Source: Candidatus Levyibacteriota bacterium (lineage in GTDB: Bacteria > Patescibacteriota > Microgenomatia > Levybacterales > UBA12049). Taken from it: DNA of 64,000 nt. Under the pieces are notes generated by a model. It was not told the origin of the DNA and did not search any database. It was given only the letters and a program-made list of their open reading frames with translations. Position 1 is the first letter of the stretch; every line of letters starts with the position of its first letter. Shown here in pieces: positions 30,934 through 38,480 of this stretch. The stretch spans positions 47,267 to 111,266 of the forward strand of contig JBDRBE010000001.1 in assembly GCA_043823085.1 (NCBI GenBank), in the 5' to 3' direction. A program made the translations under genes and the position numbers.

Positions 30934-31011
30934 CCGCTTGCCCTTCCGAAGCCTTGGCGAAGGAGGACCAACCCCGAATTATATTTTGAATAGCTTAGAG
31001 TATTAACGTTG

Positions 31012-31830
31012 TTATTTTTTCCTTAGAATTTTTTCTACCGTAATAGATATGACTTCTAATATCTCCTCCATCGTATTTTTCCCACCCGATAAATGATCCC
31101 ATAATTCCGAAGCTATAAGCACTTCGTCTGGACTAAAAAATTTCTTGAATTCTATTAAATAACTAAAGAATCTCTCTTTATCATATCCTGTTGGGCTATC
31201 CGATGTTGGATCAAAAGGAAACCCAATATAATATCTTGTCTCCTTTTCTGGATTTTTATTCTTAAATGCAGCCTTTGCATGTAAAATCTTCTGTTTTTCT
31301 CCTCTTCCTTCACCCGAGTTAGGCCTAACTGATTTAAGTTCAATTCCTTCTATAAATATCTCTGTTTCTATGTAATTATCTACAGTAAATCCTAAAGCAT
31401 CCACTTCCGGCTCAGATTTTCTAAAATTGAATATTAACTTATTTTCTCTGTCTAAATTAGGCGCTATTCCATCTCTGCGTTTTAGTTCCCTAATAATATT
31501 ATCTATATCTTCCGCTTGGCTTTTTTTAATCCTTAATGTAAACGCACCGGTAAATTCTCTTTTATAGCCTCCTGAAATTATGTGTGACAGGTCTTCAAAG
31601 CTATTACCCAAAGATGTGCTTAAACCATGCAGCCAACTAGAAATAGCAAATAAATAAGGCGTTGGTATATTTATATTCCTGAATTGCTCTTCAAATCTTT
31701 TTATAATCAGTTCATGAAAAGGAGCATTTCTATTCTTATGATCAATTTTGGGAAAGTTTTCAGCTCTGGAAGCTAGTATCTTTTTTATGACCTCCGAGAT
31801 TCTTTCCTTCTTTTCTACATTTAACGCCAT
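31012..31830 (-). CDS. putative type II restriction endonuclease (partner of the adjacent methyltransferase)
   Basis: 272-aa ORF 7 nt downstream of the DNA methyltransferase gene and apparently co-oriented with it. No recognisable housekeeping domain. Assigned by context only. Confidence 0.4.
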   Translation of the reverse strand: MALNVEKKERISEVIKKILASRAENFPKIDHKNRNAPFHELIIKRFEEQFRNINIPTPYLFAISSWLHGLSTSLGNSFEDLSHIISGGYKREFTGAFTLRIKKSQAEDIDNIIRELKRRDGIAPNLDRENKLIFNFRKSEPEVDALGFTVDNYIETEIFIEGIELKSVRPNSGEGRGEKQKILHAKAAFKNKNPEKETRYYIGFPFDPTSDSPTGYDKERFFSYLIEFKKFFSPDEVLIASELWDHLSGGKNTMEEILEVISITVEKILRKK

Positions 31831-31837
31831 ATGCTTA

Positions 31838-33436
31838 TTAAGCCTCTTTTAAATGAAATATTATTTCTGAATAGGGAGATTTATCTCTTTCCGTTCTATT
31901 TAAAACCGGCCTTTTATACATATTAACTATTTTCATGCCTGATTTATAGGCAATACCAGGGTACAGATTATATTTGTCATTTGCAACTATAAAAACATTA
32001 TAACCCTCCACCAAGTATTTTCTTGAATTTAGCAACACTTTAGAAATATCCTCTACATAGGATTGTCTCGCCTCAAGGCCTTGCCCTTTGTATAACGGCC
32101 CTATCTCTAAATCATCTTTTCGTTTAAAACCAAAAAGATCATATGCGTAAGCATGCTGTTCATGATAATCTATTTGTCCAACATACGGCGGTGAAGTAAA
32201 TATTCCTTTTATTTTTTTCTTTAATAATAACTTATAAAAATTAGGTCTAATTTTTCTAATTTCATCCTTAATATTTACCGTTCTCGAATCACCGCAAATT
32301 ATGGCTGAAAAGGCATCAGTTTTTAATTTACTAAATTCTCTTAGCCGAAATAGCGTATCTAAAGAATACCTAATGAACATTTTATTTATTGAAAAAATTG
32401 GCTTGCATATTTTCATGTGTTTATAGCAATAATAAGTTGTCAATTGAGGTGCTTTAAGCGTTGCTAAATCAGAGTGCGTTGTTGCCCTGCATGAACGAAT
32501 TGTCCTGCTTAATATGATTGCTAATATTTTTTTATTTTTTTTATTTTCTATTTTCTTTATTCGTTCGAAAGCGTAATTAAACTCTTTTCGAACATTATCA
32601 GTATACCATTTGTCTAAAAAATTATTTTTTCCGATCTGTTCTAATTTAACTTTATATTTTTGAATTAATGCATTGTAAATTTTCAAAAACTCTTTTTCTT
32701 TATCGCTTATATAATCTCTTCCTATTTCGTTTCTTGCTAATTTATACTTGAAATCTGGGCTTGGAAAATATTTATGGTTAAATTCATTAATCGCTTCTGT
32801 GAGTTCCCCATCAAAAGCTTTAATTTTATTATCTGATTCATAGGAAGTTACTAATTCCATTAAGGTTTTTATTTCTTTTTCTAAAATGTTTAAATCATAA
32901 TTTAATAATTTAACCTCTGCTATTAAACAATTAAAACGCGATATCTCAATTCCCACAGAGTGAATCCCTAATTCGTTAGCTTGAATTAGAGTTGTGCCAG
33001 AACCAACAAATGGATCCAATACGATGTCTCCTTTATTGAAATAAATCTTCTTCTTAAAATCATCCGTATGTGTATCGAGAAAATAATTAACTAGCTGCGG
33101 AATAAATTTTCCCTTATATGGGTGCAGTCTGTGAACATGTTTAGTCGTATCCTTTTCCCTATAATTATCAAAGGATAATGTCCAATTTAAATCTTGCCCT
33201 AGCCTCTTTTTCCAATCTAATTCTTTTGTCCATTTGGATGAAATGTAATATTTTTTTAAATCATCAACATCTATTAGAGTAGAACCATTATTGTTGAATT
33301 TATGAACTTTACCATATTGGACTAAATAGGAAATATTTAAGACACTAATTTCCTTGTTGAGTAATTTACTGGCTAGCTCACTAGCCTCTTTTATGGAAAT
33401 TAACTGCTGCGGCATAAATTTATTATAACAACTCAA
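31838..33436 (-). CDS. DNA methyltransferase (N4-cytosine or N6-adenine, N-4/N-6 MTase family)
   Basis: 532 aa. Motif I DPFVGSGTT (AdoMet binding) near residue 140, and motif IV SPPY near residue 415. SPPY is more typical of m4C enzymes. Confidence 0.85.
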   Translation of the reverse strand: MSCYNKFMPQQLISIKEASELASKLLNKEISVLNISYLVQYGKVHKFNNNGSTLIDVDDLKKYYISSKWTKELDWKKRLGQDLNWTLSFDNYREKDTTKHVHRLHPYKGKFIPQLVNYFLDTHTDDFKKKIYFNKGDIVLDPFVGSGTTLIQANELGIHSVGIEISRFNCLIAEVKLLNYDLNILEKEIKTLMELVTSYESDNKIKAFDGELTEAINEFNHKYFPSPDFKYKLARNEIGRDYISDKEKEFLKIYNALIQKYKVKLEQIGKNNFLDKWYTDNVRKEFNYAFERIKKIENKKNKKILAIILSRTIRSCRATTHSDLATLKAPQLTTYYCYKHMKICKPIFSINKMFIRYSLDTLFRLREFSKLKTDAFSAIICGDSRTVNIKDEIRKIRPNFYKLLLKKKIKGIFTSPPYVGQIDYHEQHAYAYDLFGFKRKDDLEIGPLYKGQGLEARQSYVEDISKVLLNSRKYLVEGYNVFIVANDKYNLYPGIAYKSGMKIVNMYKRPVLNRTERDKSPYSEIIFHLKEA

Positions 33437-33482
33437 AAAAATATTACCACTATGGAAATAAAATTTCTGCTACAATATAAGC

Positions 33483-34505
33483 GTGCAAAATGAATTTTTA
33501 GTGATTATTTTAGTGATTGCCGGCTTTGGGGCGATACTTTATTTGCTGAATAAAAAACTTTCGGAAATAAACCAGCCAAAAACCGATGAAACACTTTTGG
33601 AATGGCTAAAAAGCATGCAATCATCGGTTGAAGCAACTAAAAAAACTTTAAATGAAGTACTTCGATCAAATTCCAATGATATGGTAAAGACCTTGCAGGA
33701 AAATTCCAAACAACTTAATGAAAGATTAGACAAAGCGGCAACTGTAATTAGAGATGTCGGAAAAGAAGTCGGGCAAATGAGTGAAATTGGCCGCAACATG
33801 AAAGAACTGCAGGAATTTTTAAAAAGTCCAAAATTGCGTGGAAATATCGGAGAACATATATTAAAAGATTTAATTTCCCAAATCTTTCCCAAAAACAGCT
33901 TTCATCTTCAATATCAATTTAAATCGGGTGAAAAAGTTGACGCCGCCATAAAAACCGACGCCGGGATTCTTCCTATTGATTCAAAGTTTCCTATGGAAAA
34001 TTTTCAAAAAATGGTCAAGGCCGAAAACGAGAAAGAGAGAGAAGAATTTAGAAAAGAATTTGCCAGGGATGTTAAGAAACATATTGAAGTAATTTCCAAA
34101 AAGTATATTCTGCCTGAAGAAGGAACTATGGATTTTGCCCTCATGTATCTTCCAAGCGAATCAGTTTATTACGAATTGGTAAATATGACTGAAATTATTG
34201 ATTACGCAAGAAGAGCAAGAGTTTATGTTGTCTCACCAAGTACGCTTTATGCTCATCTCCAAACTATTCTTCTGTCTTTCGAAGGTAAGAAAATTGAAAC
34301 CCGCTCACGCGAAGTTTTTCGAATGCTTAGAGCATTAAAAATCGACTATGACAAGGTTGATGACAATTTAGGCGTTCTTGGTAAACACATAAACAATGCC
34401 TCGTCTCAATTTAATAATGTAACAAGCGGTTTTTCCCAATTAGGCAGAAAACTTAATTCAACTAAAATTCTAGATGAAAAAATTACCGAACAATTGGAAG
34501 CATAA
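33483..34505 (+). CDS. rmuC: DNA recombination protein RmuC
   Basis: 340 aa. N-terminal TM, a long coiled coil, and a C-terminal RmuC domain (DFALMYLPSESVYYEL). Confidence 0.8.
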   Translation: MQNEFLVIILVIAGFGAILYLLNKKLSEINQPKTDETLLEWLKSMQSSVEATKKTLNEVLRSNSNDMVKTLQENSKQLNERLDKAATVIRDVGKEVGQMSEIGRNMKELQEFLKSPKLRGNIGEHILKDLISQIFPKNSFHLQYQFKSGEKVDAAIKTDAGILPIDSKFPMENFQKMVKAENEKEREEFRKEFARDVKKHIEVISKKYILPEEGTMDFALMYLPSESVYYELVNMTEIIDYARRARVYVVSPSTLYAHLQTILLSFEGKKIETRSREVFRMLRALKIDYDKVDDNLGVLGKHINNASSQFNNVTSGFSQLGRKLNSTKILDEKITEQLEA

Positions 34506-34540
34506 TCTCCTTTAAAAAATTATTGTGGTAAAATAACTCC

Positions 34541-37500
34541 ATGTCAGATGTTAGAATTTTAAATGTTGAACAAAGCAAAGCGGTTAAACACGAAGTTGGT
34601 CCTCTTTTAATTATCGCCGGAGCAGGATCCGGAAAAACTACTGTTATTACCGAGCGAATAAAACATTTAATTCTTAAAAAGAATATTCTTCCTCAAAATA
34701 TTCTTGCTCTTACTTTTACCGAAAAAGCGGCACGCGAAATGGAAGAACGCGTTGATATTGCCATGCCTTACGGCTACACTCAAATGTGGATTTCTACTTT
34801 CCATGCTTTTTGCGACCGGATTTTGCGAAACGAAGCAATTCATATCGGGCTTAATCCTTCTTATAAATTAACAACAGAGGCCGAATCTGTAATGTTTTTG
34901 CGCCTTAATTTATTTAAATTTGACTTTAATTATTTTCGTCCGCTTGGCAACCCCAATAAATTTTTAGAAGGACTTTTGCAGCATTTTTCAAGACTAAAAG
35001 ACGAAGACATTAACCCTTTGCAATACCTTGAATATGCAAAGGGAATTTTAAATGTCAAATTTCAAATATCAAATAAAAAATTAGACGCTAAACGCTATCC
35101 GCTAGACGCTGACGACGATGAGGTTAAAAAGAACATTGAACTTGCAAATGCCTATAAAACCTACGAAGATTTGAAAGTAAAGGAGGGCATTATGGATTTT
35201 TCCGATCTTATATCCAACACCTTAAAACTTTTTCGGCAAAGAAAAAATATTTTAAAAAATTACCAAGAACAATTCAAATATATTCTGGTTGATGAATTTC
35301 AGGATACCAACTTTGCCCAAAACGAATTAGCAATTTTACTTTCGGGAAGTAAGAAAAACATTACGGTTGTTGGCGACGACGATCAGGCAATTTACCGCTG
35401 GAGAGGAGCGGCAATTTCAAACATTATTCAATTTCGAAAACATTTTCCAGATGCAAAAGTTATAACTCTGATTAAAAATTACCGCTCGACAAAAGAAATC
35501 CTTGATAAGTCTTATGCTCTTATTCAAAATAATAATCCCGATAGATTAGAAGTAAAAGAAAAAGTAAATAAAAAACTTGTTTCAATGAGGAAATTAAAAG
35601 GAGAACAAATTGAATTTCTATTTGCTCCAAGGGTTGAAGACGAAGCAGATCTTGTTGCTAAAAAAATTGAAGAACTCACTACGAGCCACGCGCCATCTGC
35701 AAATTACCACTTTCACGATATTGCCATTCTTGTTCGTGCTAACGACCATTCTCAAGCTTTTACAAGAAGTTTGGAAAGACATAATATCCCTTTCCAATTT
35801 TTAGGCCCCGGTCAGCTTTTTAAAAAAGAAGAAATAAAAGATTTAATTGCCTATTTAAAAGTTCTTTATAATTTCGAAGACTCCGCATCGCTTTATCGCA
35901 TAATGAATATGCCAATTTTCAAATTTGAAGCAATAGAAATTGCCACTCTTTTAAATTATTCAAAAAGAAAAAACCTCGGTCTTTTTAAGACATTAGAAGT
36001 TGCCGCGCAAAAAGATCCGCCAGCTGGCGGAGAAATTTCTTTCAAAGAAAAAACTAAGGAAAAAATAAAACATATTTTTGAAATGATAAACAAACATTTA
36101 AAAAGGGTCCCCAAAGACACTGCTGGTCAAATCCTTTATTATTTTCTACAAGATACCGGTCTTCTCAAAGAAAGCTTGAATATCAAATCACAAAGTGATG
36201 AAAAAAAATATCAAAACATTGCGAGGTTCTTTGAGAAACTAAAAGCTTTTGAAGCAGATCATGAAGATGCTTCTATTTTTGCTGTAGTTGACTGGATTGA
36301 TCTTTCAATGCAAATGGGCGAAAGTCCGCTTGCTCAAAATTCGGACTGGCAGGATATTAATGCCGTTAATATTCTAACAATTCATTCAAGTAAAGGACTT
36401 GAATTTCCAATTGTTTTTTTAGTTAATCTTGTCACGCAAAGATTTCCAACCAGAGACAGAAAAGAACAAATTCCAATCCCGCAAGAGCTAATTAAAGAAA
36501 TTCTGCCGGAGGGAGATTATCACTTAGAAGAAGAGCGCCGTTTATTTTATGTTGGCGCAACCCGTGCAAGAGATTTACTTTTTTTAACAGCGGCAAATTT
36601 TTACGGCGAAGGAAAAAGAGAAAGAAAAATTTCTCCCTTTGTTTATGAAATGCTGGGAGAAAAAACAGTTGAAAATCAAACACTGAAACAATCAAACACT
36701 GAAACAATCAAACAATTATCTCTTCTTGCATGGTCAACACCAAAACAAGAAATTCCAGCTTCCAGCTTCCAGCTTCCAGCTTCGCCACCCCTCACTTATC
36801 TTTCTTACTCGCAGATTCAAACTTTTGATATCTGCCCCCTGCATTACAAACTTAAATATATTCTAAAAATCCCGACTCCGCCTTCTTGTGCCCAAAGCTT
36901 TGGAACAAGTATACACAGCGCTCTTCGCGATCTTTATCAAAATTTAATTGGAGGATTAAAAATTTCCGAAAAAGAGCTTTTAAGGATTTTAGAAAACGAT
37001 TGGATAAACGAAGGCTATCAAAGTAAAGCGCACGAAGAAAAAGCATACGAGGGCGCAAAAAAAATAATTTTAAATTATTTTGAAAATAATTTTAACCCAA
37101 AAAAAATTCCGGCTGCTCTTGAAACTCCTTTTAAATTCAGTTTAAGAAGACAAGAAGTAAATTCACCAAGCTTAATGGTTGGCGGGAGGATTGATAGGAT
37201 TGATGAAATTGATAATAATAAAATTGAAATTATTGATTATAAAACCGGCAATAATGTCCCCGATGAAAAAAAACTGGCGGATGATTGGCAATTAACCTTT
37301 TATGCTTTGGCTGCAACAGAAGTTAGAGATAATTTATTAAATAAGAAACCCGAGAACGTTACTCTTTCTCTTTATTATTTGGAACCGAATATAAAACTTA
37401 CAACTATTAGAACAAGAGAACAATTGGAAGAGGCAAAAAAGAAAATTTTGGAAAAAGCAGATGAAATTGCAAACAGTGAATTTAAATGCAGTCAAAACAA

Positions 37501-37546
37501 TCTTTGCAAAACCTGCGAATACAAAATCCTGTGCAATACAAGCTAA
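34541..37546 (+). CDS. UvrD/PcrA-family DNA helicase fused to a C-terminal RecB/Cas4-like PD-(D/E)XK nuclease with Cys cluster
   Basis: 1001 aa. Walker A IIAGAGSGKTTVITERI, a DEFQDTN Walker B-like motif and UvrD motifs. The C-terminus has IDRIDE...IIDYKTGN (RecB-family nuclease) and C-x(n)-CKTCEYKILC. Confidence 0.85.
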   Translation: MSDVRILNVEQSKAVKHEVGPLLIIAGAGSGKTTVITERIKHLILKKNILPQNILALTFTEKAAREMEERVDIAMPYGYTQMWISTFHAFCDRILRNEAIHIGLNPSYKLTTEAESVMFLRLNLFKFDFNYFRPLGNPNKFLEGLLQHFSRLKDEDINPLQYLEYAKGILNVKFQISNKKLDAKRYPLDADDDEVKKNIELANAYKTYEDLKVKEGIMDFSDLISNTLKLFRQRKNILKNYQEQFKYILVDEFQDTNFAQNELAILLSGSKKNITVVGDDDQAIYRWRGAAISNIIQFRKHFPDAKVITLIKNYRSTKEILDKSYALIQNNNPDRLEVKEKVNKKLVSMRKLKGEQIEFLFAPRVEDEADLVAKKIEELTTSHAPSANYHFHDIAILVRANDHSQAFTRSLERHNIPFQFLGPGQLFKKEEIKDLIAYLKVLYNFEDSASLYRIMNMPIFKFEAIEIATLLNYSKRKNLGLFKTLEVAAQKDPPAGGEISFKEKTKEKIKHIFEMINKHLKRVPKDTAGQILYYFLQDTGLLKESLNIKSQSDEKKYQNIARFFEKLKAFEADHEDASIFAVVDWIDLSMQMGESPLAQNSDWQDINAVNILTIHSSKGLEFPIVFLVNLVTQRFPTRDRKEQIPIPQELIKEILPEGDYHLEEERRLFYVGATRARDLLFLTAANFYGEGKRERKISPFVYEMLGEKTVENQTLKQSNTETIKQLSLLAWSTPKQEIPASSFQLPASPPLTYLSYSQIQTFDICPLHYKLKYILKIPTPPSCAQSFGTSIHSALRDLYQNLIGGLKISEKELLRILENDWINEGYQSKAHEEKAYEGAKKIILNYFENNFNPKKIPAALETPFKFSLRRQEVNSPSLMVGGRIDRIDEIDNNKIEIIDYKTGNNVPDEKKLADDWQLTFYALAATEVRDNLLNKKPENVTLSLYYLEPNIKLTTIRTREQLEEAKKKILEKADEIANSEFKCSQNNLCKTCEYKILCNTS
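35054..35074. repeat. tandem 7-mer (NTCAAAT)x3 inside the helicase gene, encoding VKFQISN
   Basis: gtcaaat ttcaaat atcaaat. Related to the tsaD repeat unit, and it encodes the same KFQISN peptide. Confidence 0.6.
36674..36714. repeat. tandem 16-mer (AATCAAACACTGAAAC)x2.5 inside the helicase gene
   Basis: Exact copies at 36674-36689 and 36690-36705, plus a partial copy. Encodes TLKQSNTETIKQ. Confidence 0.8.
36754..36784. repeat. tandem 7-mer (TCCAGCT)x4 inside the helicase gene
   Basis: Four exact copies at 36754-36781. Encodes PASSFQLPAS. Confidence 0.8.
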
Positions 37547-37552
37547 ATCAAA

Positions 37553-37978
37553 TTATCTAAGCCTATGACAGGTTCTTACTGGAATATCCAATATCTCCCA
37601 TATAGAAGCATTATTTAGATATTCTTCCTCTTCTACCACTCCTGCTTCAGGATCAACAATTTTTCCTTCAACATTTAAAACACAATGCCTCCTATTACCT
37701 ATTTTAACCAATAACAATTTAAGATATCCATTGCAACCGCCATCTGCTTGCGGATCTTTCTTAATAAGAAAATCAATATCCTCGGGAGTTAAACCTTTAT
37801 CTCTTTTAGGTAAACTTGCAGATGGATATCCCAACATCTCCAGACAAGTGTGAACGCAATCGAAGGGACCCTGTTGTATAAGTACAGGAACTCCAAGTTC
37901 TCTATCATTAAAAGGAACATATGGTTGTCCACTTTTGCTGTCAAATATAATTTGCGGGCGTCGTGATTCAGCGCTCAT
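37553..37978 (-). CDS. standalone peptidase C39-like (papain-fold cysteine peptidase) domain protein
   Basis: 141 aa. QQGPFDCVHTCLEMLGYP fits the C39 N-terminal motif (Q...DCG.A.L.MIL.YYG), and RRHCVLNVEGKIVDP fits the His/Asp region (H.VV....I.DP). Confidence 0.4.
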   Translation of the reverse strand: MSAESRRPQIIFDSKSGQPYVPFNDRELGVPVLIQQGPFDCVHTCLEMLGYPSASLPKRDKGLTPEDIDFLIKKDPQADGGCNGYLKLLLVKIGNRRHCVLNVEGKIVDPEAGVVEEEEYLNNASIWEILDIPVRTCHRLR

Positions 37979-38023
37979 AAAAAAGAATTATACTAATTAG
38001 GACACTAAAAAATCAAGACTTAT

Positions 38024-38052
38024 TTTGATTTTCAGGATTTTTTTGCTATAAT
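38024..38052 (+). promoter_or_regulatory. sigma-70 promoter of rnpB
   Basis: TTGATT (38024-38029), 17-nt spacer, TATAAT (38047-38052), then 8 nt to the first base of the P1 helix. Confidence 0.6.
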
Positions 38053-38060
38053 TAACATGT

Positions 38061-38480
38061 CCTAGGAAGAAGGATCGCTACCCGCCAATATTTGCGCCAT
38101 GAGCCGTGTACGAATAGTACTGAAAAGGCGAATGGCAAAAATTAGGCGGGAGGAAAGTCCAGACAGGTGTAAAGCCCGGGACGGAGCGTAAACTCCGATT
38201 AGCAATAACTAGTGTTTTGATGCTTTACCCCGCTCAGCGGGGTGAACCCACATGTGGCATCAAAAACAAATTCTGAATTGACAGAATTTGAGAGCAACAG
38301 AGACGAGTGGGAGTGAAACGAGCAATCCTACCGGCTGCAACCTCCGAATGGTACGTCAAAACTTGCTTTACAGGAGTACCGAAGTTTGAGGGCACCGCGT
38401 CAAACGCGGCAGGGGTGACTAAATATCACAACTGAGATAGATTGCGATTAGAACAGAATCTGGCTTATTCTCTTCCTAGG
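38061..38480 (+). ncRNA. rnpB: RNase P RNA, bacterial type
   Basis: Conserved P4 5' strand GGAGGAAAGUCC at 38149-38160 and the 3' strand ACAGAAUCUGGCUUA at 38452-38466, with compensatory changes (AGUCCAGA / UCUGGCUU). GAGUGAAACGAG and GUAAACUCCG motifs are present. P1 pairs cctaggaaga (38061-70) with tcttcctagg (38471-80). A T-run follows. Confidence 0.85.

Follow-up and report, generated by a model that had tools for sequence, protein, structure and literature searches.

A TdeIII-type restriction-modification pair and a C39-like peptidase gene as probable insertions in a conserved repair-gene backbone of a Levybacteria genome

TdeIII is the Type II restriction-modification (R-M) system of Treponema denticola (TDE0909/TDE0911), represented in Pfam by RE_TdeIII (PF09520), and peptidase family C39 comprises the bacteriocin-processing domains of PCAT1, ComA, CvaB and LahT. 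Relatives of both were found close together in a metagenome-assembled genome (MAG) of Candidatus Levyibacteriota (CPR; Levybacteria), an ultra-small bacterium. As in TdeIII, the restriction endonuclease (REase) at this locus matches the full-length RE_TdeIII model, and its gene adjoins a co-oriented gene for an N6_N4-type DNA methyltransferase (MTase). The two genes of this TdeIII-type pair travel together between phyla, and the same has been reported for the TdeIII-like pair of H. pylori strain PeCan4 (PMC3467074).

The window (i.e., the whole 64-kb stretch of DNA that was analysed) has core genes on its flanks, including those for SecA, SerRS, LysRS, RecA and transketolase. Within positions 31012-37978, the five open reading frames of an earlier, sequence-only reading (272, 532, 340, 1001 and 141 aa) were all recovered, as were the motifs it had quoted in the MTase, the helicase-nuclease and the 141-aa protein. 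However, its framing of these genes as one accessory island is not supported, since rmuC and the helicase-nuclease gene behave as core genes with conserved synteny in each of the five Levybacteria contigs compared. The interval is very probably a mosaic rather than one island, in which a conserved backbone is interrupted by two independent lineage-specific insertions. The backbone would consist of tsaD, rmuC, a UvrD/PcrA-type helicase-nuclease, RNase P RNA, an AI-2E permease, HU, RNase Y, RecX and RecA, and the insertions would be a ca. 2.5-kb TdeIII-type Type II R-M cassette in a variable slot between tsaD and rmuC, and a ca. 0.5-kb gene between the helicase stop codon and the rnpB promoter. 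No compositional mark of an island was seen in the R, M and 141-aa genes, whose base composition and codon usage do not differ from those of the flanking core genes. Taken together, most of what the locus shows is ordinary and of modest interest.

The 141-aa C39-like protein and the adjacent RNase P RNA

The 141-aa gene (positions 37553-37978, minus strand) is inserted between the 3′ end of the helicase gene and rnpB, and is absent from the corresponding gap of the relatives (0/5 Levybacteria contigs). Its product carries QQGPFDCVHTCLEML and RRHCVLNV...DP, and its AF2 model (pLDDT 84.8) displays a papain-like fold with an oxyanion Gln, a catalytic Cys that starts a helix and a His on a beta-strand, followed by an Asp. 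Moreover, hhalign aligns its Gln and Cys residues with those of CvaB. The conserved Q/C/H residues and the fold thus bear out the C39-like assignment made earlier. The family shares the signature Q-x5-C-G-x-T-C-L-x-M-L-G...H...(C/D)-P-x-x-G, in which the 141-aa protein alone has Asp at the third catalytic position, where the 15 remaining members have Cys. No PDB sequence matches to the family were found, and none of its matches reached a Pfam threshold: PF03412 appeared only at an E-value of at least 0.12 in 2 of 16 members, and the sub-threshold matches were to Peptidase_C39, DUF3335 (best E 0.062) and Guanylate_cyc_2 (best E 0.061).

The earlier description of this domain as solitary and partnerless also stands, as neither an ABC exporter nor an ORF for a double-glycine (GG-leader) substrate was found in the window, and no neighbour of the family gene was conserved in six other loci. 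The gene product would be a C39-like Cys-His(-Asp) peptidase that stands alone and lacks a signal peptide. The family appears to be concentrated in ultra-small episymbiotic lineages, i.e., CPR bacteria and DPANN archaea, and we tentatively suggest that the 141-aa protein might represent an undescribed family of free-standing cytoplasmic C39-like peptidases, concentrated in CPR/DPANN, with substrates beyond exporter-coupled double-glycine bacteriocins. It is also possible, if rather doubtful, that the protein is not a leader-type peptidase at all and instead is a toxin, an effector or a deubiquitinase-like enzyme with a papain fold, or else a protein without catalytic activity that binds a metal via C41, C45, H98 and residue 109, a position occupied by Cys in most family members. 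Nevertheless, in both structure and motifs the protein most strongly resembles C39 domains (with the Q-x5-C-G-x-x-C-L-x-M signature), and the H-[CWF]-V... motif, followed by DP in the 141-aa protein, is C39-like as well; furthermore, the protein has neither a signal peptide nor a toxin-delivery domain, and no immunity-like partner gene is conserved. If the 141-aa protein is indeed a free-standing C39-like peptidase, its family may perform in-trans maturation of small peptides, or cleave host or self proteins. A small uncharacterised C39-like family that is biochemically testable has been identified.

Next to this gene, the element at positions 38066..38479 (plus strand) most likely functions as a divergent bacterial RNase P RNA (rnpB). 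It matches RF00010 over the full model (positions 1-367) with 24.2 bits (E 1.2e-5), contains the GGAGGAAAGTCC P4 motif, and has counterparts at the matching place in L002, L003 and L004 that differ by indels of whole helices, although at the Rfam gathering threshold (100 bits vs. 24.2) it goes unreported. Candidate divergent promoter-like sites were identified at 37987..38052 via a consensus scan (matches only, 10/12 each), the minus-strand site (38016-37987) ending 8 nt before the ATG of the 141-aa ORF and the plus-strand site (38025-38052) being assigned to rnpB. An RNase P RNA this divergent, invisible at Rfam thresholds, may outweigh the original finding in interest.

The R-M pair and the tsaD-rmuC slot

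The Type II REase gene of the TdeIII family (272 aa; positions 31012-31830, minus strand) lies 7 bp from the gene of its cognate N6/N4-type MTase (532 aa from a TTG codon; positions 31838-33436, minus strand). The REase matches RE_TdeIII with 162.1 bits (cut-off 27.2; E 2e-47), spanning model positions 4-238 of 242, and PADLOC REase_II with an E-value of 1e-60. The 272-aa ORF therefore belongs to a restriction-endonuclease family rather than to a non-nuclease one, in line with the Type II R-M pairing proposed from the sequence. The MTase in turn matches PF01555 (50.7 bits; cut-off 26.7) and, over its full length, PADLOC MTase_II (PDLC03249; 1.7e-224), with motif I (DPFVGSGTT, residues 141-149) preceding motif IV (SPPY, residues 415-418). 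An ATG at 33415 is a likelier start than the TTG, because similarity to the homologue begins at M8. From these family memberships we infer the activities of the pair: the MTase would methylate an exocyclic amino group (N4-C or N6-A) within a short target, of which options the SPPY motif favours N4-C (cf. the "possibly m4C" of the earlier reading), and the REase would cut unmethylated incoming DNA.

The nearest relative found was a betaproteobacterial Zoogloeaceae MAG (L008), at only 45% (R) and 57% (M) identity, TdeIII itself being compared by family profile. The MTase identity extends over 527 aa of L008:3340-4959, and the homologous REase is encoded by the ORF downstream, so that the homologous MTase gene is directly upstream of the homologous REase gene in the same M-R order as here. 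This recurrence of both the pair and its gene order argues for a mobile cassette. The REase residues D151...E164-L-K166 are conserved with L008 and would fit the PD-(D/E)XK pattern.

Comparison with the five relatives places the cassette in a lineage-specific insertion (positions 30934..33455) within a variable slot that runs from the tsaD stop codon (30933) to the rmuC promoter. In L009 the slot is empty, with tsaD directly followed by rmuC after a 32-bp gap, and in L002, L003, L004 and L010 it holds unrelated genes; the R-M pair is absent from all five Levybacteria contigs examined. The –10 box of rmuC ("gctacaat") has been kept in both the window and L009, and no flanking repeats, target-site duplication, integrase or transposase were found at the R-M insertion. 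These data document an insertion hot spot between tsaD and rmuC in Levybacteria, and add a TdeIII-type R-M system to a phylum with a poorly known defence repertoire.

The sequence GGNCC, which we take to be the prototype recognition site of TdeIII, occurs 59 times in the window vs. 61-64 expected. The site is not depleted, and there is therefore no restriction-avoidance signature, although the count is uninformative given that the stretch is small (64 kb) and that the specificity of the pair may differ. Together with the fully ameliorated composition of the R-M genes and the length of the REase (272 aa vs. 352 aa in the L008 homologue), the lack of such a signature would suit a decaying or purely selfish remnant, in which an orphan-like MTase accompanies an inactive, non-restricting nuclease. 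We nevertheless regard such decay as improbable, since both ORFs are intact, the REase covers almost the entire PF09520 model, the extra 80 aa of the L008 REase form a C-terminal extension beyond the Pfam domain, the residues of the putative D...ExK motif have been conserved, and the PADLOC model of the MTase is matched over its whole length.

rmuC, the helicase-nuclease and the syntenic backbone

The rmuC gene (340 aa; positions 33483-34505, plus strand; PF02646, E 1.6e-55) encodes an N-terminal hydrophobic segment followed by the RmuC domain. Further downstream, a 1001-aa protein (positions 34541-37546, plus strand; Pfam, NCBIfam) combines an SF1A UvrD/PcrA-type helicase (about 34559-36598) with a C-terminal PD-(D/E)XK nuclease (about 36800-37537). 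Both are core rather than accessory genes, i.e., vertically inherited repair genes: L002, L003, L004, L009 and L010 all share the order tsaD-[variable slot]-rmuC-helicase-RNase P RNA-AI-2E permease, with the RmuC gene upstream of the helicase gene in 5/5 of these loci, and in the four contigs that are long enough the backbone continues with HU, RNase Y, RecX and RecA. In three of the five relatives an unrelated gene sits between rmuC and the helicase gene, indicating that their operon coupling is weak. RmuC would act as a neighbouring recombination nuclease.

Pfam matches of the long protein comprised UvrD-helicase (4e-78), UvrD_C (3e-59) and PDDEXK_1 (6.5e-42), and Cas_Cas4 scored 27.6 bits (cut-off 22.7). 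Its C-terminus displays the D...(D/E)xK motif (in IDYKTGN) and the QxxxY motif, as well as three cysteines (C989-x2-C992-x5-C998) that are preceded by one N-terminal to them (C765). Across nine orthologues, Walker A (G27-T33), DEFQD (251-255), the nuclease residues D885, D899-Y-K901, Q917 and Y921, and all four cysteines are invariant, and among the matches listed there were more than 100 full-length orthologues (955-1017 aa, 62-73% identity), all with PDDEXK_1. The RecB/Cas4-type C-terminus recognised earlier is thereby confirmed, and judging from its motifs the domain is a RecB-family/Cas4-type PD-(D/E)XK nuclease with a predicted Fe-S cluster. Among solved structures, the motor comes closest to PcrA 1pjr (319 bits, vs. 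265-277 bits for UvrD) and the nuclease domain to AdnA 6ppu_A (E 1e-5). Most likely, the protein is a housekeeping single-chain end-resection/recombination-repair enzyme, comparable to a single subunit of AdnAB or AddAB, in which a 3′-5′ SF1A motor would pass one strand on to the nuclease at the C-terminus.

The tandem repeats noted earlier in the helicase gene are real, TRF revealing four arrays (all plus strand). Two of these, (AATTTCA)x4.4 at 35044-35074 and (ACGCTAA)x3.7 at 35085-35110, both of 7-mers, sit in a variable helicase insert (alignment columns about 170-205) whose length differs among orthologues, and the other two, a perfect 16-mer x2.6 array at 36674-36716 and the perfect 7-mer array (TTCCAGC)x4.4 at 36753-36783, sit in the poorly conserved helicase-nuclease linker (columns about 730-770). 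Heptanucleotide tandem arrays are in excess inside core genes, and the presence of such heptamer-only arrays within essential genes may outweigh the original finding in interest.

Whether the helicase-nuclease belongs to a defence module had been left undecided by the earlier reading, and its synteny with core genes across relatives, an outcome that the earlier reading had itself named as a refutation, now speaks against this. PADLOC revealed no second defence system at the locus, the R-M pair being its only specific match and the only defence function present in the interval. A defence island, as several distinct systems among accessory genes, was accordingly rejected, the neighbours of the pair being syntenic core genes; Gabija (GajAB) was rejected as well, no gene for a GajA-like OLD-family ATPase/Toprim nuclease being present among the ORFs called at 25.7-44 kb (scanned except for a few small ones), where the assigned ORFs have core functions. 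That the whole interval is a defence island, in which the helicase-nuclease and RmuC form an effector against phages (of the Gabija, DRT or another UvrD-nuclease type) that cooperates with the R-M pair, is very improbable and largely refuted by synteny: although PADLOC matches were strong (RT-associated helicase 2.9e-100, GajB 6e-85, RT-associated RmuC 6e-16) and both genes physically adjoin the pair, these models capture generic UvrD/RmuC domains, the same set of ORFs contains no reverse-transcriptase gene, rmuC and the helicase-nuclease retain 62-73% identity and are syntenic with tsaD, rnpB and AI-2E in 5/5 relatives (with HU, rny, recX and recA in four), and 0/5 relatives have the R-M pair. 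A caution follows for reduced CPR genomes, where a UvrD-nuclease fusion and RmuC beside an R-M pair mimic a defence island, and where such core repair genes can score strongly against defence-system HMMs.

Comparison with C39 exporters, Gabija and AddAB/AdnAB

Unlike C39 domains, the 141-aa protein is free-standing and not fused to an ABC transporter, and unlike C39 Pfam members it stays below thresholds. Its His-Asp spacing of 11 differs from that of ComA (presumably 16), most members of its family have Cys in place of the Asp, and, unlike for C39 exporters, no double-glycine substrate gene lies near its gene.

With Gabija GajB and the DRT-associated helicase/RmuC, the locus shares UvrD and RmuC domains, hence the high-scoring PADLOC E-values. 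Unlike Gabija/DRT, however, it has no GajA or reverse transcriptase among the ORFs scanned at 25.7-44 kb and its genes are vertically conserved core genes, and unlike GajB its helicase is ca. 1000 aa long with a nuclease of its own.

Like AdnAB/AddAB and PcrA/UvrD, the helicase-nuclease has an SF1A UvrD-type motor; like AdnA, it carries a C-terminal RecB-family PD-(D/E)XK nuclease, whose nearest sequence match is the nuclease domain of AdnA; and like Cas4/AddB, it has the C...C-x2-C-x5-C pattern. Unlike AddAB, AdnAB and RecBCD, however, it is encoded by a single gene with no adjoining partner subunit here or in the five relatives, and none of its NCBIfam scores reaches the equivalog cut-off (score/cut-off: PcrA 480/911, AddA 201/708, RecB 178/696). 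It represents a CPR-conserved architecture of about 960-1000 aa, unlike the multi-subunit AddAB/AdnAB.

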